Source of the DNA: Alphaproteobacteria bacterium
GTDB taxonomy: Bacteria > Pseudomonadota > Alphaproteobacteria > UBA828
Direction of reading: 5' to 3'
NCBI GenBank assembly: GCA_965237415.1
Contig: CBDEFM010000001.1
Location: 608,001-672,000 of the forward strand
Length of the DNA stretch: 64,000 bases
Part shown: positions 30,675-53,203 of the stretch, in pieces
How positions within the stretch are numbered: position 1 is the first letter of the stretch
Layout of the letters: the number at the start of each line of letters is the position of its first letter
Notes under the pieces: generated by a model
What the model saw: the letters and a program-made list of their open reading frames with translations, nothing else
Databases searched by the model: none
What the model was told of the DNA's origin: nothing
Translations under genes and position numbers: made by a program

Positions 30675-33623
30675 TTAGAGCCCGAATTCCCGATCGACAC
30701 TCTTTGGCGCCCGGACCTTTTCAGCATCCGGCCCACGCGTCCGCTCCACCGTTTCCCTCGCTTCCCCGATAGCCCGTCCGGTCTCCGGCGCCGCCTCACG
30801 CCCCTTCGCCCGCTCCGGCTCGACCGCTTCTAGCGCCGCGATCCGCTCGCCTGTCGCCGCCTCGAGCTGTTCCCTGAGCGCCGCCTTGTCGTCGGTCACG
30901 AGCTCGGCCTTGTCCCGCGCCCGGCTGATTTCGACGTAGAGCGTCTTCTGCGTGGTGAGATTGGGATGGTTCGCCTCCATCGCGGCGATCACGGTGTCCA
31001 CCGTGCGCCCCTGGAACGCATGCACGGTCGAGGCCCAGGCGCGGTCGACATGGCGGAGTTGCGCATCGCCCGCGTGCAGGTCCAGCATGCGCCCGTCCCC
31101 GAGGCGGAACGTCACGCGGCCGTCGCGCACCGCGGCGACCTCTGCGGCCTGGCTGTTCACGAGGCCCAGCCCGGTATCGTTGCGCGTCCAGCGGATGCAG
31201 TCGCCGGCGCGCAGTTCCATCGCCTCGCTCCTGTAGACCTCGACCCCGCCGCTGCGCGCGCCGATCTGCCCCGGTTTCCACGGCACGGATTGCCCGTCCC
31301 GGCCTTCGAGCATGACCGCGCGGGCCTCGCGATCGACGCCCGCGACGCGCAGCTCGTCGCCCTTCTCGACCCCGAGGCGCTTGTAGGGGCGGTGAAACGC
31401 GACCACGTCGCCGGCAGCGTAGTTGGCCGGGAGCGACTTCTCAGCGTTGGTATAGCCCTTCGAGACCAGCCGCTCGCCCTGCATGGCGGGACCGTGGACA
31501 GTGCCGTCGCGCACCAGGCGCTCGCGCACGATCTCGTTGATGCCCTCGCGCAGCGCATGGCTCGGCGCCATGAGCCCGGCGTTGGCCCGTTCTTCCGGCG
31601 GCAGGGCCAGCCAGCGCGCGGCGGCGGCGCCCGCGAGATTGTCGGGTTTCACTTCGGCGATGTTCGATCCGAGCTTCTCGAACGCCTTGCGGACATCCCC
31701 CGCGAGGCTCGCCTCGACCGCGGCCTTCAGCTCGGGATCACGCTGGCGCATGATCTCGTCCATGGTCGCGGTCTTCATCCCGGCCCGCTGAAGCTGCGCG
31801 AAGGGTTTGCCGGCATCGACCGCTTCGAGCTGCTTCTCGTCGCCGACCAGCACCACGCGGGGGATGCGGAGCGCATCGGCGATCCGGAGCAGGTCGCGGG
31901 CCTGGACCGTGGAGGCGAGCGAGCCCTCGTCGACCACGAGCGCGGTCTTCGCGAACGCCGCCCGCATTTCCTTTTCGCCCTTCTTCGTCATCCGCCCTTC
32001 GGCGACGCCGTTGTAGCGCATCAGGAAGCGCTGCAGGGTTTCGCTGCCGATCCCGGCCTCGCCCTCCAGCGTGCGCGCCGCCGAGGCCGAGGGCGCGAGG
32101 CCGCGGACCTCGTAGCCCTTCTTCTCAAGCAGCGTCCGGGCGCGGTTCAGCATGGTGGTCTTGCCGCTTCCGGCATAGCCCTGGACGCCGACCACGCGGT
32201 CCTTCGTCGAGAGGATCAGCCGCACCGCATCCTTCTGGCCGTTCGTGAGAGGCCCGTTGCGGAGCGCCTTGTCGACGGCGCGCCCGCGCATCGGCACGCC
32301 GCCGCGGCCCTGGCCCGCTCCCATGAGCGCGATGGTCTCCCGCTCGTCGGCGACGGCGCGCTCGGTGGTGAGCCGGTCCTCCAGCCCCGGCAGCTGCGCG
32401 GCATGCAGCGTTCCGGCCGCCTCGCGCGCCGCGACCTCGCGCTCGATGTCGCCGACCTGCGCCGCGCCCGGGTTCCAGGCGAGCGCCGCGGCGAGCAGAT
32501 CGGTGCGCGCGAACACCGCCTCGCGCTCCGAGAGATGCGCCACCGCCCAGGCGACGGCGCCCGCGGCCGGTCCCGGACTACGATCCGGGGCCGATCCCCG
32601 GTCCGCATCAGTCCGGTCCGCCGCCGCAGCCAGCCCGGTGGGACTCGGGACGCCCGCCATCGCTTCCCGCGGAGCACCCGGTTCCTGCACCGCCGCCTCG
32701 CGTTCGGCCCCGGCAACCAGCGCCTTCGCATCGAACCCGAGATCGGCGGCCTGCTTCCGCCAGATACCCGTGAGCTCGTCACGGTCGATGTCGCGTTTCG
32801 CGGAACGGGTCATCAGCGCCGCCCGCTCGGCAAGCCGGGGATTGTCCGCCGGGCTCCCGAGGTTGCGCTCCGCCATCGCCGCCTGGATCTCGGCGCGGCG
32901 GGTCGAGAACGCCTCGACCACGTCGCGCGAGACCCCCGCGATCTCGAAGCGTCCGTCGGCATGGGTCTTGTCGATGCCGTAACCGAGCCGCGCAAGGCCC
33001 GCCGCGAGCTCGTTCCGGTAGAGCGCGCCGAGCAGCATCTTCGAGGCGTAGAGCTTCTCGTTCGACATGCTGCGCCACTTGCCGTCGCCGGCCTTCACCA
33101 TGTTGGCGATCACCGAATGAGTGTGCAGCGCCGGATCGAAATTGCGCGAGGTGTCGTGGCGGAAGGTGGCGATGACCGTCTTCTGGTCGCCGGTGCGCAC
33201 GATGCGGCCCGTTTCCGGGTCCTTCATCCGGGTCTCGGCGACATTCTTCTCGAACCAGGCCAGCATGCGCGCGACGGCCCGGTCGTGGGCGTCAACGACG
33301 CGCGCGTCGCCGCCGACCAGCGCGGCAAGCGAGACCGATTTCGGGGCTGAGAGGGTGAGGTCGCGGCCCGGACGGTGCGCGATCTCCCCGTCCTTGCCGC
33401 GGCGCCCGAGCTGCCGCCCGGAGCCGTCCGGCACCCGGCCTTCGAGCACCGCCCGGAACATTTCGGCATCGACCGGGCCTTCGAGCCCGGCCTCGGCCGC
33501 GCCCTTCCCGGCCCAGGCGCTGGCGGCCCGGTGCTCGGCATCGTCCTTCGCGTAATAGCCGTCGCGCTCGTAGTAGGAGACGCCCTGGGCGGCCGAGGTC
33601 AGGGCGCCGATCGAGGCGACCAT
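30675..33623 (-). CDS. MOBF relaxase-helicase (TrwC/TraI-like)
   Basis: YYERDGYY, DLTLSAPKSVS, HDTSR..DPALHTH, GYAGSGKT, DEGS, VHAFQG.T; start MVASIG at 33623. Confidence 0.95.
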   Translation of the reverse strand: MVASIGALTSAAQGVSYYERDGYYAKDDAEHRAASAWAGKGAAEAGLEGPVDAEMFRAVLEGRVPDGSGRQLGRRGKDGEIAHRPGRDLTLSAPKSVSLAALVGGDARVVDAHDRAVARMLAWFEKNVAETRMKDPETGRIVRTGDQKTVIATFRHDTSRNFDPALHTHSVIANMVKAGDGKWRSMSNEKLYASKMLLGALYRNELAAGLARLGYGIDKTHADGRFEIAGVSRDVVEAFSTRRAEIQAAMAERNLGSPADNPRLAERAALMTRSAKRDIDRDELTGIWRKQAADLGFDAKALVAGAEREAAVQEPGAPREAMAGVPSPTGLAAAADRTDADRGSAPDRSPGPAAGAVAWAVAHLSEREAVFARTDLLAAALAWNPGAAQVGDIEREVAAREAAGTLHAAQLPGLEDRLTTERAVADERETIALMGAGQGRGGVPMRGRAVDKALRNGPLTNGQKDAVRLILSTKDRVVGVQGYAGSGKTTMLNRARTLLEKKGYEVRGLAPSASAARTLEGEAGIGSETLQRFLMRYNGVAEGRMTKKGEKEMRAAFAKTALVVDEGSLASTVQARDLLRIADALRIPRVVLVGDEKQLEAVDAGKPFAQLQRAGMKTATMDEIMRQRDPELKAAVEASLAGDVRKAFEKLGSNIAEVKPDNLAGAAAARWLALPPEERANAGLMAPSHALREGINEIVRERLVRDGTVHGPAMQGERLVSKGYTNAEKSLPANYAAGDVVAFHRPYKRLGVEKGDELRVAGVDREARAVMLEGRDGQSVPWKPGQIGARSGGVEVYRSEAMELRAGDCIRWTRNDTGLGLVNSQAAEVAAVRDGRVTFRLGDGRMLDLHAGDAQLRHVDRAWASTVHAFQGRTVDTVIAAMEANHPNLTTQKTLYVEISRARDKAELVTDDKAALREQLEAATGERIAALEAVEPERAKGREAAPETGRAIGEARETVERTRGPDAEKVRAPKSVDREFGL

Positions 33624-33636
33624 GCCCGGATCCGGC

Positions 33637-35766
33637 TCAGATCGTGACGCCGGGCCGCGAGCCGGCCCCGTCGTCCGCCGCGTTGTCCGCCTCGGCGCCG
33701 CTCCGTGCGGCCGCCTTGTCCCCGCGGGTCTCCGCCGCGGCTGCGGCCGTATCCCCGCCCGGAGTGGACGGGGCCGCGTCCGGCGCCGCCGGGGACGGCT
33801 CCGAACCCGAGGCGTCGCCGCCGGAGCCGTCACAGGAGGAGTCGCCGCAGGTCTTCGACCAGAATTCCAGCTCGCCCTGCGGGTCCGGCAACTCCGCTCT
33901 TATTTCCGCCGCCGCTCCCGGCGGACCTGCGTCCGGGCCGCCGTCGCGCGGCTTCGGCAAGGCCGGCGGCGGCTCCGCCTGCGGCCCGTCCTCCCGCCCA
34001 TCGTCCTCTGCGTCCCCCCGCGCGTCGTCCCGCGCCACGAAACGCTCGGCCGCCTTCGCCCGGTCGACGTAATCGAGGCGGATGGTGGCGACCGGCAGCG
34101 GGCCGGGGAAGCGGAGATAGCCGGAGAGGTTTTCGAGCCGCATGATCTCGGAGGCGAGCGCCAGCGCCCGGAGCTCGCGCTTCGGCGTGAGGGACACGCC
34201 GTCGCGGATGGTGTTGGCGCCGTAGGAGAAGCCCTCGGCGACCTCCTCGACCTCGCTGCGCCCGAGGCTGTCGGCCGACCATTGCGCGGTGTCGCGGTCG
34301 GGTGACGCCAGCACGACCCTGGTGCCGCACAACCCCGAGACGGTCTCGGCGCCGTTGCGCCCGTAGAGGTCGCGCAGGGCCGAGATGACCTGGACGCCGA
34401 GCACGAAGCAGCCGCCGAACTGGCGCGATTCGGCGAGGCCCGGCTGGAGCGACGGCACCTGGTGCAGCGTCGGCAGCTCGTCGAGGATGACCCAGATGCG
34501 CCGCCCGTCGTCCTGGGCGAGCGACAGCATCGCGTTGACCGCGATCTCCAGCCAGGTCGAGATCAGGCCGCGCAAGGACGCATGCTGGTCGCCGCGCGAG
34601 GTCAGGAACAGGTTCCCGCCGCCGTCCTCGCGCGATATCCAGTCGCGGATCGAGAACCGCCTGCCGCTATCGGGCAGGAACTCCATCGCGCTCAGATTGG
34701 CGGTCAGCATGGCGCGCACCGAGAGCGCGGTCTTCGGGTTCTCGGGATCGACGATCGACTGGGCGACCGTGCCTTCCATCGCCTCGGCGAGCGCCGTCAA
34801 GTCGGTCTTGAGCAGATGGTCGACCAGGACCTTGTTCTCGGTGACGCCGCGTTCCCACAAGACGCCGGCGCCGTTCGAGAAGAGCTGGCGGGCGGCGGTC
34901 ACCCAGAACGGGTCGACGGTGTCCTTCTGCTGCGGGATCAGGGCGGCGGCCATCATGTCGAAGTCGCGCGGGCTGCGGGCCTCGAGGAAGGGTGACCAGC
35001 GCGGCGCCCTCGCGTCGAGCGGGTTCATCAACACGTCGCGCGCCGGATCGAAGAACGACCGGGTGTAGCTCCCCATCTTGTCGTAGATGACGCAGCGCTC
35101 GCCGCGGGCGCGGATCTGGGCGACGAGGTCGGAGATCAGCACCGTCTTGCCCGAGCCGGTGGTGCCCGAGACGATGGTGTGCTGGGTCTCGGTGCGGGCC
35201 GGGTAGGGGATGCCGGCAACCCGGCAGGACCGCAGCCGCCCGGCGCCCGGCATGGCCTCCAGGAGGCGCGTCCGGGCCGGCTGCACCTGGCGCCGGAGTT
35301 CGCGCGCCGTCACCAGCTCGGCGCCCCGGATTCTGCGCCGCCGCCCGAGCTGGACGCCCCGGTACCAGAACCAGGCGAGGAACAGGGCGATGATCGCGGC
35401 GCCGGCCGCGGCGCCGCGCCAGGCGCTCGCGAACATCTCGTCCTTGATGCGCTCGCGGATCCGCCAGGCCGGGACCGAGGCGGCGATCGAGCGGATGGTC
35501 AGCACCTGCCGCCTGCCGTCGGGACGGCGGATCTCCTGGCCCGACTTGGGGTCGTAGCCGAGCGCGAGCTTGGCCTCGGCGAGCGTATACATGCCCGCCG
35601 CATACCAGTCGGCGCCGGTGGTCCGGTGCCACAGCGTCCAGGCCGGCACCGCCACCACCATGAACGCCGACAGCAGCATCGCGGCCTGGAACAGCTGGGC
35701 CCACATGCGGATGCCGTGGAAGACCGTCTGGCCGCCCCGCAGCGTGCTGCCGCCGAGACCGCGCAT
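33637..35766 (-). CDS. traD: Type IV coupling protein (TraD/TrwB-like)
   Basis: Two N-terminal TMs, H..VSGTTGSGKT, YDKMG, LDELPTL, AESRQFGG, LYGRNGA. Confidence 0.92.
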   Translation of the reverse strand: MRGLGGSTLRGGQTVFHGIRMWAQLFQAAMLLSAFMVVAVPAWTLWHRTTGADWYAAGMYTLAEAKLALGYDPKSGQEIRRPDGRRQVLTIRSIAASVPAWRIRERIKDEMFASAWRGAAAGAAIIALFLAWFWYRGVQLGRRRRIRGAELVTARELRRQVQPARTRLLEAMPGAGRLRSCRVAGIPYPARTETQHTIVSGTTGSGKTVLISDLVAQIRARGERCVIYDKMGSYTRSFFDPARDVLMNPLDARAPRWSPFLEARSPRDFDMMAAALIPQQKDTVDPFWVTAARQLFSNGAGVLWERGVTENKVLVDHLLKTDLTALAEAMEGTVAQSIVDPENPKTALSVRAMLTANLSAMEFLPDSGRRFSIRDWISREDGGGNLFLTSRGDQHASLRGLISTWLEIAVNAMLSLAQDDGRRIWVILDELPTLHQVPSLQPGLAESRQFGGCFVLGVQVISALRDLYGRNGAETVSGLCGTRVVLASPDRDTAQWSADSLGRSEVEEVAEGFSYGANTIRDGVSLTPKRELRALALASEIMRLENLSGYLRFPGPLPVATIRLDYVDRAKAAERFVARDDARGDAEDDGREDGPQAEPPPALPKPRDGGPDAGPPGAAAEIRAELPDPQGELEFWSKTCGDSSCDGSGGDASGSEPSPAAPDAAPSTPGGDTAAAAAETRGDKAAARSGAEADNAADDGAGSRPGVTI

Positions 35767-39271: not shown

Positions 39272-40153
39272 TTAGCGATTGAGGGTGCGTTTCCAATCCC
39301 GTCGCAGAGGCCGGAGCCAGACATCCTTCTTCGGCTTGTCATACTGCCTGTCCCGGTCGTAGCGCCCGCGTCCTTGGGTGGCTCCGACATGGATCCAGCC
39401 CGATGCCCTGTAGACCGCGCCGGTATATCGCGGGGTTTCGACGAAAGTCTCGATGAGCACCGGCGTGGTCTTGTAGCGCTCGGTCCAGTCGTCGGGCAGG
39501 CGCCGGCGGATGAGGGCGAGGATGTGCGAACCCAGGTTGGGGATCTCGATCCAGGGCAGGATCAGGAACCTCGGGTTGTCGACCACGAAGGGAAGGTTCT
39601 TCTCGCGCTTCTGCCGTGTCCATCCGATGAAGTTGTCGCGCGGGGCGAGCTTCCACGCGGCGGTGGAGAAGCCGAGCATGGCGAGTGGCCAGCCGTTTCG
39701 GTCCTGGACGGCATAGCGCATCTGGGCGCCGACCAGGGTCTTGTACCCGAGATAGTGGTAGCGGGCGACGAACTCGTTCCAGAGCTTGCCCTCGCGGGTC
39801 TCGCGCACGACGGTCCGCAGATCGAGCGGGCGGACCTCGTCGAGGGTTGTGGGGGCCGGGAACAGCGGCGGCTCGGTATCCGGGCCGAAGACGACCGGCT
39901 TTGGCCGGTGCTGCCGGCCCCTGGGCGGCGGCAGGACGATGAGGCCGTCGCGGTGCTTGGCCAGCATGGCGACCCTGGCCATCATGTCCTTGAGGCCGCC
40001 GTCGGGCTTGAACCAGGCGATGCGCCGGCAGAACTCTCTCGACAGCCCGGCGCGGGTCGGCTGCGGATCGACAGCGATCAGCGCGCGCAGCAGCGCCATT
40101 TCCCCGGCGGTGAAGTCGCGCCCGTAATAGCGGCACTCGACCTGGCCGATCAT
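39272..40153 (-). CDS. DUF4338 (DruA-like) domain protein
   Basis: YHYLGY..LVGAQMRY, AAWKLAPRD.FIGW, N.RFLILPW, NLGSHIL, ETFVE...G..YRASGW..VG.TQGRG. Confidence 0.88.
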   Translation of the reverse strand: MIGQVECRYYGRDFTAGEMALLRALIAVDPQPTRAGLSREFCRRIAWFKPDGGLKDMMARVAMLAKHRDGLIVLPPPRGRQHRPKPVVFGPDTEPPLFPAPTTLDEVRPLDLRTVVRETREGKLWNEFVARYHYLGYKTLVGAQMRYAVQDRNGWPLAMLGFSTAAWKLAPRDNFIGWTRQKREKNLPFVVDNPRFLILPWIEIPNLGSHILALIRRRLPDDWTERYKTTPVLIETFVETPRYTGAVYRASGWIHVGATQGRGRYDRDRQYDKPKKDVWLRPLRRDWKRTLNR

Positions 40154-40439
40154 CCCGCTGCCATGAAGCTGTCCTGCGCTCCTCGCTCATCGACCATGGC
40201 AGCCACGGCGACAGGTCGTCCGGCGGCCGGCCGGCATTCTTGGCGCATGTTTCCAGCCACGCCTCCAGCCAGCGCAGGACGGCGATGCCGTTCAAGGCGA
40301 GGGTGCCGATCGTCGAGTACATCATCGCCGTGAACCTGGCGCCGTCCTCGCTGTCGGAGCCGAAGGACAGGCGTCTTCCGATGACCGGCCCTCTGAGGGC
40401 GCGCTCGGCCGCGTTGTTATCGGGCATGTTGAGCACGAC

Positions 40440-40635
40440 GCTTGGATTCCGATCAGCGACTCGCCAGACGTTGTGGTACGAGCGCACGTCGGGACAGGGG
40501 CGTCGGAGTGCGAAGAACGGGCAGGCCGAATGGATGATGAGCTGCGAGCTCGTGTTGTTATCTGGCCGCCCCTGCGACCAGCCCGGCTGCGCTGCGAGCG
40601 CGAATCCGTAGATGTCGCACGTGCCCGTGCACTCC
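40440..40635 (+). ncRNA. Predicted IS110 bridge RNA (transcript boundaries approximate)
   Basis: Ordered guide matches GTTGTTATC (40554-62), CGCTG (40590-94), ATCCGTA (40604-10), TGCCC (40622-26) to target GTTGT-TA-TC-CAGCG and donor ATCCG-TA-TC-GGGCA, within plausible stem-loops. Confidence 0.8.
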
Positions 40636-41727
40636 CTCTGCAACTGGAAGGGAGGATCCCATGCGTGTGATCGGACTGGATGTCCACCGCAGCTTCGCCC
40701 AGGTGGTGGTGCTGGAGGGAACCGAGATCGTCAAGGAAAAGCGCCTGGACCTGGAGCATGACGCTGTCGTCAAGTTCGGCCGCAGCCTCAGATCGGATGA
40801 TGAAGTCGTTCTCGAGGCGACGGGCAACACTGCGGCGATCGTCCGGCTGTTGAAACCCTTCGTCGCGAGAGTGGTGATCGCCAATGCACTCCAGGTACGC
40901 GCCATCGCCCATGCCCGGGTGAAGACCGACAAGGTCGACGCCGCCATCCTGGCGAAGCTGCATGCATCGGGCTTCTTGCCCGAGGTCTGGTCGGCGGACG
41001 ACGAGACCATCGCCCTGCGCCGCCTTGTGTCCGAGCGGGCGGCGCTGGTCCGGTCGATACGACGGAGCAAGAGCAGGGTGCAGGCCGTGCTCCACGCCAA
41101 TCTGGTTCCCAAGTATGCCGGTCACCTCTTTGGCAAGGACGGGCGCCGTTGGCTGTCTGAGGTTCCGCTCCCCGACGGCGAGAGAGCCCTGCTTGCACGC
41201 CAACTGGACCAGCTCGATTGGCTGAACGGCCCTCTCATGGTGCTGGACCGCAAGCTTGCGCGGACGGCGCTCGATGACAAACGGGCGCGTAAGCTGATGA
41301 CGGTCGCGGGGATCAGCTCGGTCGTCGCCACGGCGGTGCTGGCGTCGATCGGGGACATCTCCCGCTTCGACAGCTCCGAGAAGCTGGCGAGCTACTTCGG
41401 ACTGACACCGCGCGTGCGACAATCCGGCAATCGGCCGGCCTTCCACGGAAAGATCTCTAAACACGGGAACGCGACGGCGCGAACCATGCTGATCGAAGCC
41501 GCGTGGGTGGCCGCATCCGTTCCCGGACCGCTGCGCGCCTTCTTCCTCCGCGTCAAGGCGAAGAAGGGGATGAACGTGGCCGCGGTGGCGACAGCGCGGA
41601 AGATCGCGGTTCTGATCTGGCATCTGCTGACCAAGGACAAGCCCTACGAATGGGCCCGGCCCGCCTTCGTCGCCATGAAGATGCGCAAGCTCGAGTTGAA
41701 AGCGGGTGCGCCGCGGGCCTATGGAAA

Positions 41728-42752
41728 GGCTCAATTAGTGATTCGTATGCGTCATCGTGTTACGGCGGCGGCGAGGCAGGCCCGGTCATTGGCGCCGGGG
41801 GCGAGGCCGACGAGGTGGAACCAGCTCAGGTAGTTGTCCAGATAGCGGGTGGCGATGCCGCGGCGGGGGCGCAGGAAGTCCTTCAACCTACTGTGGCGGC
41901 TGTTCACCGTCTGCACATGCAGATCGCCCCGAACCCGTTCCCCCATCGAGCGGTTGAGTGCTTCGTGGCTCACCCCGAGCGCGGCGGCGCAAGGTGGGTA
42001 GCTCGCGCCGCCGTCGGAGACCAGCAGGGCGTCCTTCGCGACCACCGGATCGAGGGCAGCCGCGAGCGCCGCCGCATCGACCCTGGGCAGCACAGTGCTG
42101 ACCGTCGTTCCGCTGCGGTTCGCCGCCATGAGAACCGGCACCTGCTCGCGCGAGAGGCCGCGCTTCTTCGCCTTGCCGCCCCGCCGCCGTGCCTTGCGTC
42201 CCAGCCCGCGCGCACCCTTCCGGCTCTCCAGGACGTAGGTCTCGTCCGCTTCCACGATCCCCTTGAGCACCTCCGAATCGCTCCGCGCCGCCGCCAGAAA
42301 CCGGTGACGCCAGCGGAACGCCGTGCTCACCGCCACGTCGCAGCGCGCCGCCGAGGCCTTCACCGTCTCCCCCTTCGCCAGCGACGCCCCGAACGACAGC
42401 CAGCGTTCCTTGTGGTGCAAGCCCGACAGCGGCGTACCGCTCAGCGCGTTGAAGGTCCTGCCGCAGCCCTTGCACTGGTAGCGCCGCAGACCCCGCGCCA
42501 TACCGCGCGAAACCGCCCCCTCGCTCGCGCAGTGCGGACAGCGCCGGGCCTCGTCCACACCAAGCTCGATCGCGGCCTTCGATGCCTCGCCTTCGCTCCG
42601 GCCCGACAGCACCGCGAGCGCCTCGCGCCGCTGCGCGCGCGTCAGCCCGCGCGCCGCCGAAAACCACACCTGGAAACCTTTGACGTCCATAATCCAACCT
42701 CCTGACGTTCCAGGCATTCTATCGCAAATACATACGATTCGCGAATTGAGCC
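41728..42752 (-). mobile_element. Complete IS1595-family element nested in IS110
   Basis: 22-bp imperfect TIRs GGCTCAATT..G.GA.TCGTATG; 8-bp TSD TATGGAAA (41720-27 / 42753-60). Confidence 0.95.
41752..42690 (-). CDS. IS1595-family transposase
   Basis: CPHC..CKGC, IVEADETY, LVSDG, HVQTVNSRHSRLK, GIATRYL..YL.W. Confidence 0.93.
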   Translation of the reverse strand: MDVKGFQVWFSAARGLTRAQRREALAVLSGRSEGEASKAAIELGVDEARRCPHCASEGAVSRGMARGLRRYQCKGCGRTFNALSGTPLSGLHHKERWLSFGASLAKGETVKASAARCDVAVSTAFRWRHRFLAAARSDSEVLKGIVEADETYVLESRKGARGLGRKARRRGGKAKKRGLSREQVPVLMAANRSGTTVSTVLPRVDAAALAAALDPVVAKDALLVSDGGASYPPCAAALGVSHEALNRSMGERVRGDLHVQTVNSRHSRLKDFLRPRRGIATRYLDNYLSWFHLVGLAPGANDRACLAAAVTR

Positions 42753-43313
42753 TATGGAAAAGCCGGACCCGGGCGGGACTACTGGATCAAGGAGATCCGT
42801 CATCGGGAGCTGGAACTGGTCGGCTACGCTGAAGCCGCCTACGCCAAAATGGCGGAGAACTGGCAGCCGAGACCTCCCACCGCCGCAAAAAACTGACACG
42901 AGAGCAACTTTGGGCTGTTCAACAACATCCGTATCCAGCGGCACCTGGGGGCGGTCGACGAACACGCACAGCCCTTCGCGATGGTTCAGCAGCGAGCGCA
43001 GCGCCTTGCCCTCGCGCGCCTGGTCGGACAGGCCGGCGAACTCCTGTTCGGCCTGCGCGAACAGGCCGTCGAGTGCCTCCTTCAGCGTTCCCTGCGCCGC
43101 ATCGAACGCCGGCGTCTGGCGCTCAAGCCCGGGGTCGTAATGCTCCAGCCGCGCCTCGTTCAGGCGGTAGAGCAACGCGATCCGCTCGATCCATCCCTGG
43201 CGCCAGTCCGTCAGTCTCACCTGGCCGGCCGCGCACTCGATAAAATAGCGGCGCATATGGGACCAACAGAATGCAAGGGTCAAGCATCTGGTGCTGTGCC
43301 GGGTCGAGAAGCG

Positions 43314-45204
43314 TATAGCGCGACGATCAAGATGAGACTCCGTATTGCCTCATTCTTGGATGTTCCCGAGCTTCGAGGTGCTTGCCTCACGTCGATGTTC
43401 CCCAAGGTCACGGCTTCGCTTCACTTGTCACGGCTGTGTCCCCAGGCGTGGTGCTGGAGTTCTGGCAGCGTCGGCAGCTGTGGGTAACCGGCTTGCCGCA
43501 GCGACCTCCATGAGTCTGGCGGCGGCGAGCCGGTTATCCACAGCGGTGGCCAAGGCAAGATCGGCCTTGTCGGCTGGTGCCGGTACCACGGTGTCGGATT
43601 GGCTCGCTCCAAACACCAGGTCGTGGGCTTGCTCCTGGCGCCAGACCTGCACGCGGCGTTGCAGCGTACGCAGAAGATTGTCGGGATAACGGTCGGGATG
43701 CTTTGCCTGTAGTTGTTCGAGCAGTTGACGGCTCGTTCGCCACGGCTCGGCTTCGAACCATTCCCGCAACTGCTCGGTGACGTCAGCCAGGGGATCGGGC
43801 CTGCGGCGGCCCCGTTTCGGCTTTGCAGCGGGCCGCGCCGTCGGCCGCACATCACCATCCTTCCATGCCGTTCGCAGCCCGGCGAGAAACTCGTCGATCG
43901 GCGGCACACCGGCCGGCGCCGATTGAACCGCCACGGGCCGGTCGGCAAGATCGACCAGACGCTGTTGCGCCCGTCTCATATCCCTCAACAGGCGGATCGG
44001 ATCCAGGGTCGCGAACGGCGCGCTCACTTCGTCGCGAACGCTTTGCGGTGTGCGCTGATCCGCGAGCAGGCGTTGAAAGGGCGTTGCCGGAGGATGGTAG
44101 CGTTTACACACGTGGGCGCCGTCGCGCGTCTTGCTGGCGAGCTTGAATGAGGGCTGGAAGAAATTCACGAACAATCTCACTGTGGCGTAAAGCTGCGACA
44201 GTGCAGCCACGGCCTCCGGGCCCTCCAGGCGGCGATAGCCCACGATGCGGCGAACGATCGCGCCGTTCTTCTGCTCGACAAAGGCCTGATCGTTCTTGCG
44301 CCAGGGGCGGCAACGCGTGAACTCGATGCCGGCGTCGCGGCAATAGTCCCGCACCGTTTCGTTCATGAACACGCTGTCATTGTCGGTGTCGAACCCGAGC
44401 AGGTCGAACGGCAGGAGCCTGCGGACGGCCGTCAAGACCGCGCTCACGAGCGTGCGCTCGCGGAACAGCAAGGGAGCGCACTCCGTCCATCCCGTGGCGA
44501 TATCGGTGAGTACCAGCGTCTGGACAAAGCTCCCGCGCGTCACCGGGCCGCTGTGAGCCACCAGATCGGCCTCGGCGAACCCTGGCGGCGGATCCTGCCA
44601 GTCAGCATAGGTGCGCACCGGAATACTCCGCCGCACCGATGACGATGCGAGCGAAGATCTTCGGCGCCGCCCGCCGGCCTGCTCTCGTATGCTGCGAAGT
44701 GACCGGTCGATCGTCGCCGCACTCATGGTCAGCAAGCGGCATCGGACATCGTCGGCGAGCTCAAGATGACCATGCCGTTCCATGGCTTCGACGAGAGTGG
44801 GAAGCAGCGGCTTCAGGCGCTTCCCGCAAATGCGGTCCGACGCTTCCCACAACACAACCAGTGCCTCGCGCACCGCATCGTCGTAAAGCCGCCGGCCAGC
44901 TCGCAAGGCTGCCGCTGGGCGCGACGACGAGCCGCCTCGCAGCAATCGCATCACGTGCTTCCGGTGATAGCCCGTCACCGCCACGAATTCATCCAGAATG
45001 CGCGTCTTCTCCTCGCGTCCGCTCTCGCCATACCGCCGTGACAGCGCTGCCACAAGTTCATCCCGTGTCGCCATGCTCACCCTCCTCATACCCAAAGCCC
45101 CCGATCCATTCCCCTCGGGAGCATTTCAGATGAGGCAACGAGTCGCTCAAAAGGAGCAAATCAGGCGAGGCAATGCGGAGTCTCATCTTGATCGTCGCGC
45201 CGCA
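43314..45204 (-). mobile_element. Complete rve-type (IS481/ISNCY-like) insertion sequence
   Basis: 34-bp IR with 1 mismatch (43318-43351 / 45167-45200); 5-bp TSD AAGCG (43309-13 / 45205-09). Confidence 0.9.
43428..45095 (-). CDS. Integrase-core (DDE) transposase
   Basis: EADLVAH, TDIATGW, DTDNDSVF, RPWRKNDQAFVEQKN. Confidence 0.92.
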   Translation of the reverse strand: MGMRRVSMATRDELVAALSRRYGESGREEKTRILDEFVAVTGYHRKHVMRLLRGGSSSRPAAALRAGRRLYDDAVREALVVLWEASDRICGKRLKPLLPTLVEAMERHGHLELADDVRCRLLTMSAATIDRSLRSIREQAGGRRRRSSLASSSVRRSIPVRTYADWQDPPPGFAEADLVAHSGPVTRGSFVQTLVLTDIATGWTECAPLLFRERTLVSAVLTAVRRLLPFDLLGFDTDNDSVFMNETVRDYCRDAGIEFTRCRPWRKNDQAFVEQKNGAIVRRIVGYRRLEGPEAVAALSQLYATVRLFVNFFQPSFKLASKTRDGAHVCKRYHPPATPFQRLLADQRTPQSVRDEVSAPFATLDPIRLLRDMRRAQQRLVDLADRPVAVQSAPAGVPPIDEFLAGLRTAWKDGDVRPTARPAAKPKRGRRRPDPLADVTEQLREWFEAEPWRTSRQLLEQLQAKHPDRYPDNLLRTLQRRVQVWRQEQAHDLVFGASQSDTVVPAPADKADLALATAVDNRLAAARLMEVAAASRLPTAADAARTPAPRLGTQP

Positions 45205-46693: not shown

Positions 46694-46783
46694 ACGCGTC
46701 GATCACGACAGGCTGCCTGGTTTAGGGACGGCGACTGGGAACGCGTCGATCACGACAGGCTGCCTGGTTTAGGGACGGCGACT
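46694..46783. repeat. Perfect 43-bp near-tandem duplication of the iolG 3' end
   Basis: ACGCGTCGATCACGACAGGCTGCCTGGTTTAGGGACGGCGACT at 46694-46736 and 46741-46783. Confidence 0.92.
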
Positions 46784-47766
46784 CTTCGACCGGTCTTGAG
46801 GGATTGGACGGCGGCATCAGCTATGGCGAGAGCTGCAAGACCGTCGGTGCCATCCGAATAGGCAACCTCCCTACCCCTGATGAGGTCGCAGAACGCCTCG
46901 ATTTCGAGCCGATAGGCGTCGACATAACGATCCATGAAGAAGTCGCGGAGCGGGTCGGTGGCGAACCCCGCCGCACCGGCCCGCGCGACCGTCGTGGCCA
47001 CGGGATTTCCGGCCGAGACCATGCCAAGGGAGCCGTGCACCTCGACCCGCTGGTCGTAGCCATAGGTGGCCCGGCGGGAGTTCGAGATCGCGGCGAGTCT
47101 TCCACCCTGCGAGCGCAGCATGACGGCTGCTGTATCGACATCGCCGGCGGCACCGATGGCCTCGTCGATGAGCACCGAGCCTGTCGCGGCGACCTCGACG
47201 ATTTCTTCGCTGATCAGGAACCGGGCCATGTCGAAGTCGTGGATCATCATGTCTCGAAACAACCCGCCGGAGCGTTCGACAAAGCCGATCGGCGGTGGCA
47301 CCGGATCGCGCGAGGTGATCTGCACCAGCTCGATATCGCCGATGTCCCCGCTGTCGATCACGTCGCGCAGGCACCGGAACGACGGGTCGAAGCGACGCTG
47401 GAAGCCGATCATCAATGGAACACCGCATCCTTCCGCCACGGCCACACTCCGTTGCGCCCGGGCGAGGTCGAGGGCGACCGGTTTCTCACAGAAAATGGGC
47501 TTGGCCGCTCGAGCCGCCCTCTCGATCTGATCGGCGTGCAGGTCTGTGGGCGTCGCGATCATCACGCCCTGGATGGCCGGATCGTCCAACACCTCATCGG
47601 CCGAGGCGACGCGTGCGCCGGTCAGCCGGGCGACGGTCGCGGCGGCGGCTTCGTCGGGGTCGGCGACGGCAACCAGTCGCGCATCCTCGATCCCCGCGAG
47701 CGAGCGAGCGTGAACGCGGCCGATCCGGCCGGCGCCGAGGAGCCCTAGCGCGACAGGGCCGCTCAC
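46750..47766 (-). CDS. iolG: myo-inositol 2-dehydrogenase
   Basis: GAGRIG, CEKP, GFQRRFD, SRDP, GGLFRDMMIHDFD, YGYDQRVEVHG. Confidence 0.93.
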   Translation of the reverse strand: MSGPVALGLLGAGRIGRVHARSLAGIEDARLVAVADPDEAAAATVARLTGARVASADEVLDDPAIQGVMIATPTDLHADQIERAARAAKPIFCEKPVALDLARAQRSVAVAEGCGVPLMIGFQRRFDPSFRCLRDVIDSGDIGDIELVQITSRDPVPPPIGFVERSGGLFRDMMIHDFDMARFLISEEIVEVAATGSVLIDEAIGAAGDVDTAAVMLRSQGGRLAAISNSRRATYGYDQRVEVHGSLGMVSAGNPVATTVARAGAAGFATDPLRDFFMDRYVDAYRLEIEAFCDLIRGREVAYSDGTDGLAALAIADAAVQSLKTGRRVAVPKPGSLS

Positions 47767-48575
47767 GACCCGGCGTCCCGACGATAGATCCAGTCGTGAT
47801 CGGGATGGTTCCTGAAGCGCCACTGGCGCTTCGGGCCGGCCATGACGTTGAGGTAGTACATGTCGTAGCCGTAAGGCGCGCCGCACGGGTGGTGGCCGCG
47901 CGGCACGAGAACGGTGTCGCCGTCGGAGACCGCCATCGTCTCGTCCAGGTCTCCGTCCTCAGTGAAGACGCGTTGGATGCCGAACCCCTGCGGCGGGTCG
48001 ATGCGGTGATAATAGGTCTCCTCCAGATAGGTCATCTCCTTGCCCTCGTCGGCATCGTGCCGATGGGGTGGATAGCTCGACCAATTGCCCTGGGGCGTGA
48101 ACACCTCGGTGATCAGAAGGCTGTCGGCGATATCTGCGTCGTCCATGGCGATGGGGTGGATATAGCGCGTGTTGGCGCCCTTGCCGCGCTCCAGCAGGGG
48201 GATACCGGCCGGATCGATGGCCGCCGCTGCGTGTCCGCCAGCTCCCGGCGCCGAGCAGACCGCGATGGTGCAGTCCGTCTCCGCCCGAGCGGACCATGAG
48301 CTTCCGTTGGGCACGTAGACGGCATGGGGCTTCTTCCGCTCGAAGACACATATGCGTTCGCCCTGGAGGCCGAAATCGACGTCCGGCGTCGCCAGATGGG
48401 CCTTTCCCTCGACCATGACCAGGATCACCTCGCGACTGCCGGTCTCCTCGCCGGCCGTCTCGCCGGCCTCGAGCGCGTAGACGGCGAACCCGACATAGCG
48501 CCAACCGGCGTCTTCCGGCGTGATATCGATAATCTTGCCTGTCGAGCCCGAGGGTTTTCGCAAGAGACTGGTCAA
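47763..48575 (-). CDS. iolB: 5-deoxy-glucuronate isomerase
   Basis: [29 protein letters not shown]; TTG start overlapping the iolE stop. Confidence 0.95.
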
Positions 48576-49480
48576 TTTGCGTGCTCCTTGTCCAAACCGG
48601 CTTCCCGCGCCATCGCGCGAAGCGTCTTCAGTGCCAATGTCTGGTAGACGACCGGGTCGCGTGCCGCCGGGTCCTGCTCGGCCTCGGTGATGAGCCAACC
48701 GGAGTAGCCGTGCCGGGCGGCTATGCGCAGGACAGCCGGGAAGTCGACGCAGCCTTCGTCGTCTCCCGGCACCGTGAACACGCCGAGCTTGACTGCCTTG
48801 AGGAACGACAGGTCCTCGGCCATCGCCTTCCGGCGAATTGCGGGGCGCACGTTCTTCGCGTGAATGTGGACGATACGATCCATGTATCGCTCGGCCAGCG
48901 CTGCCGGATCGGCACCGGCGAACGCGGCGTGCCCGGTGTCGAGCAGAAGCCATGTGCTGGGGCCGGCGTGCGCCATGAACGCCTCGATGTCCGCCCCGCT
49001 CTCGACCACGGTTCCCATATGGTGATGGTAGGCGAGGCGGATGCCGTGACCCGTGCAGTGTGCGGCGATCGCCTCCACGTCCGCGCAGAACGCGGGCCAG
49101 CGGGAGGGATCGAGCGTCGGTCGGTCAGAGAGCGGCGCGTCGAGTGCGCCGTGAACGGCGCCGGTCGTTTCGCAGGCGATGCAGGCCGAACACCCCAGCG
49201 CCTTCAGCACTTCGAGATGCGGCTCCATCTCCGCGATCTCGTCCGCGACGGATCGTTCGAGCAGTCTCAAGGAATGCCAGCCTGAGACGTAGTCCAGCCC
49301 GTAGGTGCCAAGCACCGCCTTCAGCGCCCCAGCATCGGCGGGGAACTTGTGACCCTTCTCAATCCCGTCGAAGCCGATCCGGCTGGCATCTCTCAGACAC
49401 TGTTCGAGCGGGATGTCGCCGCCGAGGCTCCGGTCGTCGTCGTTCGACCAGGCGATGGGGTTGGTGCCGTAGCGGATCAT
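48572..49480 (-). CDS. iolE: myo-inosose-2 dehydratase
   Basis: [29 protein letters not shown]. Confidence 0.95.
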
Positions 49481-51297
49481 TGGCGCCTCTTCAGCGCCGC
49501 GTCATAGGCTTCGCGCGCCCGCACGACCTCGGCACGGTCCGAGACTTCGGGCACCGCGACGTCCCACCAGTGACCGCCGGCCCCCGTGCTCACTGCCGGG
49601 TCGGTGTCTATCACGATGACGGTGGTGCGGTCGGCCGACCGCGCCTCGCTTATGGCGGCCTCCAGGCCCTCAATGCCGTCGACATGGGTCGCGACAGCTC
49701 CCATCGAAGCGGCGTGGGCAGCGAAATCGATGACCGACGGTGCCTCGTGCCGGGCCGTATTGAGCAGGTTGTTGAAGCTCGCGCCGCCGGTGGCCCGCTG
49801 CAGCCGGTCGATGCAGCCGAAGCCGCGGTTGTCGAGCACGACCACGGTGAGCTTGAGACCGAGCATGACGCTGGTCGCAAGCTCCGAGTTCATCATCATG
49901 TAGGAGCCGTCGCCGACGATAACGACCACATCGGCGTCGGGACGCGCCATCTTGACGCCGAGACCGCCGGCGATCTCGTAGCCCATGCAGGAATAGCCGT
50001 ATTCCAGGTGATAGTCGCCCTGGCGCGGCGAGCGCCAGAGCTTGTGCAGCTCGCCGGGCATGCCGCCGGCTGCGCAGACGATCATCCCGTTGTCGCCGAT
50101 GGTTCGCTGAACGGCGCCGATCACCTGGGCGTCCGATGGCAGGACGTTATTGCCGGGCGCGCCGGTGGCCGCGTCGGCAGCGCGGTTCCAATCGGTCTTC
50201 AGCGCCTGGCTCGGCGGTGTGAAGGCGTGGTCACCCAGTGCGGCGTCGAGCTCGTCGAGGGACGTCCGCGCGTCGCCGACGACGCCGATCGCGTCGTGCT
50301 TCGTCGCATCGAAGGCTGCCGCGTTGATCGCCACCAGCCTTGCGACCGGGTTCTGGAACAGGCTCCACGAGCCGGTGGTGAAGTCCTGCAGGCGGGTGCC
50401 GATCGCTAGGATCAGATCCGCCGCCCGTGCGATTTCGTTGGCGGCTTCGGTCCCCGTCACGCCGATGGCGCCGACGCTGCACGGGTGCGACCAGGGCAAT
50501 GCCGACTTGCCGGCCTGGGTTTCGGCAACGGGGATGCCACGGCGCTCGGCGAAGGCCGCAAGCGTGTCGCAGGCTTGGGAATAGTGAACCCCGCCGCCGG
50601 CGATGACGAGCGGTGTCTTCGCCGCGCGGAGCGCCCGGACCGCGCGCTTCAGCTCGCGTGCATCGGGCCGTTGCCGGCGCATGGTCCAGGTCCGGGACTC
50701 GAAGAACGCGTCGGGATAGTCGTAGGCCTCGGTCTGGACATCCTGGCACAGAGCGAGGGTGACGGGTCCGCACTCGGCGGGGTCCACGAGCGTCGCCATC
50801 GCACGTGGCAGGGCCGACAGCAGTTGCTCGGGCCGGGCGATGCGGTCGAAGTAGCGGCTGACCGGGCGGAAGCAGTCGTTGGCGCTGACGGTTCCGTCCC
50901 CAAAATCCTCGACCTGCTGGAGGACCGGGTCGGGGAGCCGGTTGGCGAAGACGTCTCCCGGCAGGAACAGCACCGGCAGGCGATTGACGTGCGCCAGCGC
51001 CGCCGCCGTGACCATGTTGGTGGCACCCGGTCCGATGGACGACGTTACCGCCATGAGCCGCTTGCGGTTGTTGGCCTTGGCGTAGGCGATCGCGGCGTGC
51101 GCCATGCTCTGCTCGTTATGGCCACGCCAAGTGGGGAGCGAATCGCCCGCGCGGTGGAGGGCCTCGCCGAGTCCAGCGACGTTGCCATGGCCGAAGATCG
51201 CCCACACCCCGGCCACGAGCCGCTCACCGTCCTCGTTCACCTGTGCGCCCAGATAGCGGACGAGGGCCTGCGCCGCCGTCAGTCGGATCGTGCTCAT
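49477..51297 (-). CDS. iolD: 3D-(3,5/4)-trihydroxycyclohexane-1,2-dione acylhydrolase
   Basis: [45 protein letters not shown]. Confidence 0.96.
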
Positions 51298-53203
51298 GGT
51301 CGTCCCAATCCCGCGCATGCCTCGTCCCAAGCCGCGCAGAGGCCGGCGAAGGTTTCGGCCATGCGCGTTACTGCCATATCGTCGGTCATGGTACCGGCCA
51401 TCCAGGCCCGGGCGACATCGGCAAATATGGTGCGCCCAATGGCGAACCCCTTGACCAGATCGTGCCTGGCCGCAACCCGAAAGCTCGCGTGCAGGTCGTC
51501 GACGGGCGCATCCAGGCCGAGTACGAGTATGCCCCGGCAATAGGGGTCGTTGGCGGCGATCGCGTCGCACGCCAGTTGCCATGCCCTATCCAAGACCATC
51601 GGCTCCAGCTTCCACCAATCGGGGTAGACGCCGATGGCATAGAAGCGCTCGATGATCGCGGCCGTCAGCGTCTCGTCCGCCGGTCCGTACTTGGAGGGAA
51701 TGACCTCCAGCAAGAAGTCCAGATCGTTGGCGCGTGCCGCGTCGGCCAGTCGCTTGACCGTGGCCTCCTGATCGGCGCGCAGGTCGTCCGGGTCGTCCGG
51801 ACGATAGAAGCAGAGAACCTTCACCACGTGTTCGGACGGCCATTCCGCCAAGGCCGAGCCGAAATCGTCGCCGATTTCTACGGCCAGCGGTCTCGAGCCG
51901 GGCTTCTCCACCGGACGGGCGATCCAGAGGCCGGTCCCCGCCGCCGCGAAGAGCGCCGCGCGGCCGAGGCGCATGTCGCAGAGGATGCCGAAGCCCTCGC
52001 GCCCGTCGGCGACGCGAAGCGTCGCATCCAGGCAGAGGTTCTTGAATGCGCCGATGCGCTCCGGCGCCGATCCGCAGCAGGCCGCCATGTGCTCGAGCTG
52101 CGTGCGGTGATCGAAGGCGAAGACACGCATGCCTGGCCATGTCCTGGCGCGGTTGGTCGACCAGTGGATCTGCTCCAGGCGCGCATCGTGCCGCACGGCG
52201 GGCGTGGAGGGGCCATGGTCCAGGAAGTGGCGCAGCTCGATGGCGCTGGGGTAGGCCGGCGTGCAGCCGTGACGCGAGACGGCGAGCGCGCCGCAGGCAT
52301 TGGCGATGCGCAAGGTCTCGGCCCAGTCCTCGCCCGAGAGCCATCCCTTGAGCAGGCCCGCCATGAAGCCGTCGCCGGCGCCGAGCACGTTGAAGACCTC
52401 GACCATGAAGGATTCGCCGCTGATCCCCTCGTCGAGGGACGCGGGAACTGGCCCGTCGAACGCGGTGGCGCCGGCGGCACCCCGCTTGCAGACCAGGGTC
52501 GCCGCGCTCACAGCGCGCACGTTGGCCAGCGCCTCGTACGTCGCGGTCGCGCCGCCGGCGATGTGAAATTCCTCCTCCGTGCCGACGATCACGTCGAAAC
52601 GGCCGAGGATCCCTTGCAGCTTGGCCGTGACCGCCTCCGATTCGATGAAGCGGTTCTCGCCGTCGCCGTGGCCCGACAGGCCCCAGAGGTTGGGCCGGTA
52701 GTCGATGTCGAGGATGGTCTTCGCGCCGGCCGCGCGGGCCAGATCGACGGCGCGGAGGGTCGCGGCCTCGGTCCGGGGATGCGACACGTGCGTGCCGGAG
52801 GCGAGGACGCAGCGGGCCTCGGCGATGAACTCAGGGTCGATATCTTCGGGCGAGAGCGCCATGTCGGCGCAGTTCTCGCGGTAGAAGATCAGCGGGAAGC
52901 GTTCCTGATCGCGGATACCGAGCAAGACGAGCGCCGTGAGGCGCTCCGGGTCGGTGATGATACCGCGCACGTCCACCCCTTCGGCCCGCAGCTGCTCGCG
53001 GATGAAGCGCCCCATGTGCTCGTCGCCGACGCGGGTGATCACGGCCGATTTCAGGCCGAGCCGTGCCGCACCGGCCGCCGTGTTGGTGGGCGAGCCGCCG
53101 ATGTACTTGCGGAAGGTCCGCATGTCCTCCAGCCGGCCGCCCACCTGGCCGCCGTAGAGGTCGACCGACGATCGGCCGATGGATATGACATCGAGAGGAC
53201 GCA

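Follow-up and report, generated by a model that had tools for sequence, protein, structure and literature searches.

An IS66-type transposase gene (tnpC) was found to be interrupted by an insertion sequence of the IS110 family in a stretch of 64,000 nucleotides from an Alphaproteobacteria bacterium (GenBank assembly GCA_965237415.1, contig CBDEFM010000001.1, positions 608,001 to 672,000). This whole stretch is called the window below, and all positions are counted from its first letter. The IS110-family element, which is the subject of this report, lies on the plus strand from 40419 to 42932 (2,514 bp, including a nested IS1595-family element), as delimited by the junctions kept in its relatives and by paralogous empty sites. 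The host gene is on the minus strand. Its portion upstream of the insertion, ending in ...V-P-L-D, lies at 42933-43283, and its downstream portion, N-N-A-A-E-R..., lies at 40335-40418; both assignments agree with the empty-site paralogs, and the latter also with its translation. The Pfam DDE_Tnp_IS66 match is split by the insertion: it covers profile positions 148-255 in the upstream portion, ends there at 255, and resumes at 255 in the downstream portion to reach 283. The element is inserted antisense to TnpC, between the D codon and the NN codons. An initial annotation of this DNA had read P-L-D-N-N of an IS66 TnpC on the opposite strand of the target, and the Pfam match on both sides confirms it.

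The junction sequences are GTTGTT|ATCGGGCATG on the left (40413-40428) and ATCCGT|ATCCAGCG on the right (42927-42940). The left target (LT) is GTTGTT at 40413-40418, and the right target (RT) is ATCCAGCG at 42933-42940. Two uninterrupted IS66 paralogs in the same genome (L097 and L098) read ...ATTGTTATCCAGCGGCAC... across the insertion site. Thus, the inserted segment is the 2,514 bp from 40419 to 42932. Excision of 40422-42931, from which the target had initially been reconstructed, would leave TATC twice. The boundaries can be slid by no more than 3 nt, inside the TATC common to both ends. As the empty sites of L097 and L098 show, the insertion is scarless and made no target duplication, and the same junction type was found in 64 non-redundant rows of the junction alignment.

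The left terminus (40419-40431, plus strand) consists of a 7-nt extension, ATCGGGC, which is the right donor (RD), followed by a subterminal inverted repeat, ATGTTG (40426-40431), whose partner CAACAT lies at 42923-42928. The right terminus, ATCCGT (42927-42932, plus strand), is the left donor (LD) and is kept in the relatives. The extension beyond the repeat is 7 nt on the left and 4 nt on the right, the last T of the latter being common with the target. In the relatives, the left end begins with A[T/A][C/A]NGG[C/T]ATG, and the right end is ATCCGT in 63 of the 64 non-redundant rows and ATCAGT in one (L014). The subterminal repeats covary between the two ends (5.55 vs. 4.71 identical of 8 over 58 distinct end pairs; 0/2,000 shuffles reached this value). 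In the IS110 family, joining of the ends in a circular intermediate is expected to create a promoter; across the joined ends of the present element, only a weak hexamer pair was seen by eye (TGTTCA, 17 nt, CATGTT). The right junction of one relative, L057, carries a tandem of the element's final 8 nt (ACATCCGT).

Non-coding stretches of 242 nt (40419-40660) and 36 nt (42897-42932) lie upstream and downstream of the recombinase gene, respectively. The first 355 codons of the gene, carrying the DEDD and S-G residues, are found at 40661-41727 (plus strand) behind a probable ribosome-binding site, GGGAGG (40650-40655). The last 47 codons (YGKAGPGRDYWIKEIR...) are displaced to 42753-42896 and match the consensus tail of an alignment of eight related proteins. 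Pfam found both the DEDD_Tnp_IS110 domain (PF01548; E 3.9e-15, 56.4 bits against a cut-off of 29) and the Transposase_20 domain (PF02371; E 1.5e-24), in agreement with the IS110-family membership proposed initially. Across the eight aligned proteins, D7, E52, D90, D93, and S255 are invariant, as are G247, L248, P250, S255, and G256 in the region of the C-terminal G--P----SG motif.

Is this arrangement shared by related elements? A search of plasmid DNA gave 170 records, the nearest named one being ISAtu7 of Agrobacterium Ti plasmids. A query for related loci with a single protein gave no match, while a query with the eight-protein alignment succeeded: a profile scan of species-representative genomes returned 545 relatives among 594 candidate stretches, and the best 80 of these 545, with 53-81% protein identity, were examined. 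In a search of the same order (E <=1e-40), four of 49 genomes had a relative, the genome of the window being counted. A conserved RNA motif was present in 84 of the 93 loci examined; 82 were kept after L022 and L061, which are cut at the locus start, were dropped. L057 and L066 were omitted or handled as outliers in some counts.

The structure of this RNA was obtained with RNAalifold and pair counts on 62 distinct homologous RNAs, without prior input. Two similar stem-loops were found, each of which has a small apical hairpin with a GNG cap above an internal loop and a basal stem. In the first stem-loop, GGGGC (40497-40501) and GCCCC (40568-40572) form an outer stem, with 54 sequences having G-C and seven having A-U at column pair 21/104. 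In loop 1, the basal stem pairs GGCCG (40524-40528) with UGGCC (40563-40567) and is invariant (paired in 62/62), while the apical hairpin GAGCU-GCG-AGCUC (40539-40551) has two pairs changed on both sides (L014, L092, and L045). In loop 2, the basal stem pairs UGCGAC (40573-40578) with GUCGCA (40614-40619), where the column pair 109/153 is G-U in 23, A-U in 18, and G-C in 14 sequences, and the apical hairpin is GCGCU-GCG-AGCGC (40589-40601). All of these 5' strands and hairpins are on the plus strand. Overall, 97.1% of cells are paired in the 62 homologs, compared with 33-43% in slid controls. Three pairs have changes on both sides, in ten cells; shuffles reached these two values in 1/500 and 0/500 cases, respectively. 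Some G-U pairs are invariant in 61-62 of the 62 sequences, which fits transcription of the plus strand.

The single-sequence fold agrees with this structure, although it is no more stable than shuffles (z = -0.68), a test made uninformative by the high G+C content. A terminator-like call in the left end was rejected, as it is apical hairpin 1 followed by a U-rich guide segment. The claim that the left end holds a conserved structured RNA with target- and donor-matching segments is supported. The particular stems first proposed, GCTCG/CGAGC with an inner TGGCCGC/GCGACCA hairpin, are not supported: they pair in 80.9% of cells without any both-side change, and one of their pairs is unpaired in 62/62. 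The guide RNA would span roughly 40490-40620 of the plus strand, as judged from the conserved fold. In L066, the 5' strand of loop 2 is lengthened by an insertion of about 40 nt. Pairing is possible between CUCCC (about 40633-40637), downstream of the guide RNA, and the GGGAG in the ribosome-binding site (40650-40655), and similar pairs were seen by eye in relatives; this may be a translation-control hairpin.

Which segments of this RNA read the target and the donor? The initial annotation had assigned four motifs in the order of IS621, namely left target guide (LTG), right target guide (RTG), left donor guide (LDG), and right donor guide (RDG), with CGCUG as the RTG, UGCCC as the RDG, a TA core, and a 2-nt TC skipped by both right guides. 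The coordinates of its motifs are correct (GTTGTTATC at 40554-40562, CGCTG at 40590-40594, ATCCGTA at 40604-40610, and TGCCC at 40622-40626), and all four segments match perfectly in the window copy. Two occurrences of GTTGTTATC were counted in the 64-kb window, where 0.05 are expected, and 0/100 shuffles had two or more. For the homologs, mutual information between RNA columns and DNA positions is dominated by the four target groups. Instead, the complementarity of each RNA to its own DNA was compared with that to shuffled DNA.

The LTG was placed correctly. It forms the 3' side of loop 1 (40552-40562, plus strand), where GUUGUU (40554-40559) equals target positions -6 to -1, and AUC (40560-40562) equals both target positions +1 to +3 and the first three bases of the element. 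Positions 1-6 of the LTG follow their own targets (4.5/6 identity vs. 3.8 shuffled; 0/1,000 shuffles reach), and the LTG differs by target class, being GTTGTT for N-N codons, GTTAGT for T-N codons, and CTCGTT for N-G codons.

The RTG was found on the 5' side of loop 1 (40529-40538, plus strand), where UGGAU (40531-40535) is complementary to target positions +1 to +5, ATCCA (42933-42937). Over 58 unique guide/target pairs, complementarity to the own target at +1 to +7 is 4.94/7, compared with 3.98 in free shuffles and 4.23 in shuffles within an LTG class, and 0/5,000 shuffles reach 4.94. With one row per distinct guide (n = 41), the values are 4.84 and 4.11 (0/5,000). The base opposite +1 is Watson-Crick in 46/64 rows. 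Examples are AAGUAUCUC with GAGATATTT in L063 and CUUGAC with GTCAAG at an atypical site in L041. A right target guide between the LTG and the LDG, as in the IS621 layout, was also sought; no segment there follows the target. The CGCTG segment matches its own target 5/5 only in the window copy (1/64 rows), 4/5 in one row, and at most 3/5 in 62 rows. It is near-invariant while the targets differ, and it is included in apical hairpin 2 as its 5' strand, which is paired in 92.6% of cells. Neither the CGCTG assignment nor the rule of a skipped TC is supported. With the RTG placed 5' in loop 1, the guide order is RTG-LTG-RDG-LDG, the top-strand-pairing guides sitting 5', and not LTG-RTG-LDG-RDG.

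The complementarity of the loop 5' strands might instead be a by-product of shared ancestry of element and host, with only the LTG, the LDG, and the protein reading DNA. The partial pairing of the RTG speaks for this, as do copies with the same RTG whose targets differ at +4 to +7 (L017-L026 of a Paracoccaceae genome, and the ISAtu7 copies). The available part of a preprint (10.64898/2026.08.31.748434) also describes that a half-matching substrate can suffice for IS621 in cell-free assays. However, the signal holds under shuffling within the LTG class (0/5,000) and in each class alone (1/5,000 shuffles reach it in class AD, 5/5,000 in class C, and 102/5,000 in class B), L064 and L041 have guide-specific sites, and in a contig from a public sequencing run, the RTG differs from that of the window by four substitutions (40530-40536), with one further base inserted after 40517. 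I regard a role for the left guides alone as rather unlikely. In that contig (run X6, depth about 10), the substitutions are at 40530, 40532, 40535, and 40536, and the inserted base is a G; they turn the RTG AAUGGAUG into ACUAGACA, the guide of the Paracoccaceae copies, and the variation is concentrated in the guide.

As for the donor, the LDG forms the 3' side of loop 2 (40602-40613, plus strand), where AUCCGUA (40604-40610) equals the ATCCGT right end plus the first base A of the element. The sole LDG variant, AUCAGU in L014, is mirrored by the ATCAGT right end of that element, in support of the original placement. The probable RDG is on the 5' side of loop 2 (40579-40588, plus strand), where GCCCG (40581-40585) is complementary to CGGGC (40421-40425) in the left end. 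This side covaries weakly with the donor (5.31 vs. 5.09 shuffled; 2/1,000 reach), and in the IS256-targeting group, CCGGUU pairs with AACCGG 6/6 directly at the element end. The RDG named at first, UGCCCG (40622-40627, plus strand), lies 3' of loop 2 and is complementary to CGGGCA; it may be an alternative or additional donor contact. Its TGCCC (40622-40626) does not covary with the donor in the homologs (248/1,000 shuffles reach). With moderate confidence, the loop 2 site is preferred as the RDG. Taken as a whole, the first geometry owes its appeal to the window copy, where all its segments match and the pairing of UGCCCG with the left end reaches 8 pairs. Among the homologs, its right target guide does not follow the target, its stems lack compensatory changes, and its right donor guide lacks covariation, and it is very improbable that it is correct.

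The TA core was half right. At position -2, the 64 targets have T in 41, G in 21, and C in two rows, while the donor has G in all 64. At position -1, the target has T in 63 rows and C in one, and the donor T in 64. At position +1, the target has G in 40, C in 13, A in 10, and T in one, and the donor A in 64. T|A is thus the junction in 64/64 donor circles, while only 10/64 targets have A at +1. A fixed 2-nt core could not be placed, as (-2,-1), (-1,+1), and (+1,+2) each fail in most rows. At the left junction, the base at -2 is always that of the target and the base at +1 that of the donor, and the opposite holds at the right junction. No copy with the reciprocal arrangement, which would be expected from segregation of a 2-nt heteroduplex, was seen among the junction rows. 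I infer from the junction sequences that they fit single-strand transfer rather than two staggered exchanges. Single-strand insertion has been proposed for other IS110 elements, according to the available parts of two reports (10.1101/2025.10.25.684509; 10.64898/2026.08.31.748434).

The left flank was resolved in 75 of the 82 kept loci. Among these (^ marks the insertion), 43 loci have an IS66-like target with the motif x^NNxxE[R/N/Q], 17 an IS256-like target with T^TNx[I/L/V]E, eight an IS6-like target with L^NNx[I/V]EQDH, and one an rve target with T^NGxVER. Other targets were found in six loci, including L038, an IS66 gene in which the E is changed to V. In summary, 69 of the 75 insertions, or 70 if L038 is counted, are placed four codons ahead of the codon for the catalytic Glu in transposases of the IS66, IS6, IS256, or rve type. 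The distance of four codons from the cut to the Glu of the conserved N-x-x-E motif holds in every motif class, as does the antisense orientation of the element relative to the host gene. Pfam confirmed nine of nine representative upstream pieces: three match Transposase_mut, ending at profile position 333-334 of 379; one matches rve, ending at 102 of 102; two match DDE_Tnp_IS66, ending at 254 of 284; and three match DDE_Tnp_IS240, ending at about 79-93 of 139. These results strongly support the earlier proposal that the RNA is aimed at the D-N-N codons of IS66, and the habit is wider than proposed, extending to four transposase families.

Such clustering could also arise by survival rather than by aiming, if many GTTGTT-like sites were hit and only insertions in dispensable multicopy genes persisted. 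Five insertions (L028, L075, L079, L090, and L091) are in non-transposase sequence that still reads [D/T]^[N/T][N/M/K], so the short motif itself is usable. On the other hand, the placement is exact to the nucleotide in 69/75 flanks and in four families, and the guides run 5-9 nt into sequence specific to the family and differ from one host family to another. Survival without aiming is hard to credit as the explanation.

The recombinases were placed on a quick maximum-likelihood tree of 68 distinct sequences with supports from the SH-like approximate likelihood ratio test (SH-aLRT). The IS66-targeting elements form one clade (100), in which the window element is the basal branch of its subclade A (98). 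In the other clade (100), targeters of IS6, IS256, and rve are mixed with one IS66 targeter, L064. The latter is inside an IS6-targeting branch (97), yet it has an IS66-type guide, AAAUUGAC, and a site in an IS66 gene. Judged by its guide and its site, L064 is a case of natural re-aiming in which the position in the host protein is kept.

Taken together, 40419-42932 is best explained as a copy, disabled by IS1595, of an IS110-family insertion sequence that resembles ISAtu7 and works with a bridge/seek RNA aimed at DDE transposase genes, to which I assign a probability of about 0.78. The observations on which this explanation is built are the sequences, the covariation of the fold, the covariation of guides with targets, and the insertion pattern. 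In the proposed mechanism, the 3' strand of loop 1 (LTG) would pair with the bottom strand just left of the crossover, and the 5' strand (RTG) with the target top strand at +1 to +7. The 5' strand (probably RDG) and the 3' strand (LDG) of loop 2 would read the joined element ends likewise. Recombination would join target ...GTTGTT|N... to donor ...ATCCGT|A... without duplication. The guides would direct the element antisense into DDE transposase genes, four codons before the catalytic glutamate codon, at D^NNxxE in IS66, L^NNxIE in IS6, T^TNxIE in IS256, and T^NGxVE in rve, and the branches of the clade would carry differing guide sequences for differing host families. RNA production, binding by the recombinase, and strand-exchange chemistry would follow IS621, ISEc21, and ISEc11 by analogy.

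Several points weigh against this explanation. No sigma-70-like promoter was found in a promoter scan of the integrated left end, and no Rfam family matched in a scan of 40000-43400 (E up to 1). A look-up of public runs that contain the sequence listed no RNA run. The target and the donor share no dinucleotide core, only the T at -1, and the core rule of IS621, as stated, does not seem to apply. RTG pairing is imperfect, typically 4-6.5 of 7 with 5 contiguous pairs in the window, and its register (a tail of 0-4 nt) is the best of five, as it is for the shuffles. In the donor loop, the difference of 5.31 vs. 5.09 is small, and in the window copy, the downstream UGCCCG pairs over 8 nt (one G-T) vs. 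5-6 for GCCCG in loop 2. Compared with IS1111-type elements as described in the available part of PMC11187229, the repeats are 5-7 bp vs. the usual 11-13, and the protein is about 395-405 aa vs. 330-350. Finally, the loci are non-independent, since several come from one genome and the relatives fetched were the best 80 of 545, and the tree comes from a quick search.

The window copy itself is probably inactive. The nested IS1595-family element (1,025 bp, 41728-42752, minus strand) breaks the recombinase frame after codon 355. It was identified by Pfam and by the 8-bp direct repeats TATGGAAA that flank it (41720-41727 and 42753-42760). Its transposase gene (41752-42717, minus strand) is a frame of 321 aa with HTH_23, Zn-ribbon, and DDE_Tnp_IS1595 matches, and the element has imperfect terminal inverted repeats (GGCTCAATT...). 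Each of three public sequencing runs gave a contig that spans the recombinase gene into IS1595 with the same interruption, and a contig of run X1 also spans the left junction. No intact form of the window copy was found among the contigs of the three runs. Joints that skip about 2.5 kb have other letters between the two sides; they come from paralogous uninterrupted IS66 copies. A search of the same genome for other copies found only the window element and a fragment, with no second full copy; the fragment, L002 (G000 contig C2, 3418026-3418194), is 169 bp long and 98% identical to recombinase codons of about 16-72. The proposal of a candidate programmable recombinase is thus overstated for the window copy, whose gene is interrupted; intact relatives exist.

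A second interruption of the IS66 TnpC gene seems to lie about 350 bp upstream of the IS110 element (43284-45095). There, a minus-strand frame of 555 aa (43428-45095) with rve and weak IS21/IS481 matches occupies the expected place of the TnpC N-terminus. As read from these frames, this would be a three-deep nest of insertion sequences. The nest lies between a conjugative module, with a MobF/TraI-type relaxase and an F-type TraD coupling protein on the minus strand (30675-35766), and a catabolic operon with the inositol catabolism genes iolG, iolB, and iolD (46750-51582). No resistance gene was found among the 10 annotated of the 87 long frames in the window.

Beyond the single copy, the whole clade may be one of RNA-guided DEDD recombinases parasitic on transposons, whose bridge RNAs were repeatedly re-aimed (IS66, IS6, IS256, and rve) but always at one structural spot, four codons ahead of the Glu codon, and whose junctions record single-strand transfer; I see the chances of this wider view as evenly balanced. 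If it is true, each insertion inactivates the transposase copy that it enters and gains a landing site that is multicopy, horizontally travelling, and harmless. One transposon family would then clearly be policing others or riding on them. A target in a coding motif of the active site resembles the choice of conserved active-site codons by homing endonucleases and inteins. The natural junctions that have a mismatched base beside the crossover number more than 60 and would make an independent in-genome test of the single-strand transfer models put forward in preprints of 2025-2026. For tool building, the intact relatives offer target guides of 6-9 nt and 5-9 nt; the window copy is broken.

Bridge and seek RNAs are already known, and the window element is not a new kind of system. 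IS4321 and IS5075, elements of the IS110/IS1111 family, reportedly insert specifically into another transposon family, as Partridge and Hall are said to have found in 2003. The present clade differs from these: it enters the transposase gene itself, in four families, at the codons that precede the one for the catalytic Glu. Searches of the literature for IS110 elements that target IS66 or other transposase genes gave nothing relevant, though supplementary target tables may list ISAtu7-like targets, and a search for ISAtu7 found no paper mentioning it. As far as the searches reach, and supplementary tables aside, both the homing to catalytic codons of transposases and the variant that combines an upstream RNA with IS1111 polarity are unreported. 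ISAtu7 (an NCBI product name; pTiBo542 and other Agrobacterium plasmids) is the closest named relative, with about 74% DNA identity and 76-77% protein identity. It has the same RNA scaffold, the same LTG, and an insertion in IS66 TnpC at D^NN, whereas its RTG is AAUUGAC for GTCGATT, compared with UGGAU for ATCCA in the window, and its copies are intact.

Compared with IS621, as described in the available parts of Durrant et al. 2024 (PMC11208160) and Hiraizumi et al. 2024 (PMC11208158), the clade shares a DEDD recombinase with a C-terminal Ser domain, an RNA upstream of the gene, two internal loops (target first, then donor) that each cover both strands at the crossover, and scarless insertion. 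As in IS621, loop segments covary with target and donor DNA (here RTG and LTG, one LDG variant, and weakly RDG). In contrast, the guide order inside the loops is reversed: the bottom-strand-pairing guide is on the 5' side in the IS621 bridge RNA (PMC11208160), while in the present clade the guide that pairs with the top strand is 5' and the one that pairs with the bottom strand is 3'. The same source includes the CT core in all four IS621 guides, and here no CT-like common core exists, only one T. Further, the protein is about 395-405 aa vs. about 326, subterminal repeats of 5-7 bp are present, and the natural target is a coding motif of transposases vs. repetitive extragenic palindromic (REP) elements in IS621.

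As far as the available part of Siddiquee et al. 2024 (PMC11187229) describes them, the seekRNAs of the IS1111 type (ISEc11, ISPa11, and ISKpn4) put the top-strand complement first, and that of the IS110-type ISEc21 is reversed. The RTG-LTG-RDG-LDG order of the present clade is that of the IS1111 type. The same part gives IS1111 members subterminal repeats, left extensions of 7 bp and right extensions of 3 bp, and a downstream non-coding region, with rare exceptions. The clade shares the extensions (here 7 nt on the left and, on the right, 3 nt plus the common T), and it has subterminal repeats, though of 5-7 bp compared with the usual 11-13 bp. Unlike in the IS1111 type, and like in IS621 and ISEc21, the non-coding region of the clade precedes the gene; rare IS1111 relatives with an upstream region (ISMtsp17) are also described there. 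Since an upstream RNA occurs together with the guide order and extensions of IS1111 and with short repeats, the present clade is, as judged from its sequences, a mixed form that joins an IS110-type upstream RNA to the IS1111 guide order and short covarying repeats. An IS110-type layout with IS1111-type guide order and short repeats would be a useful intermediate for understanding how the two groups relate.

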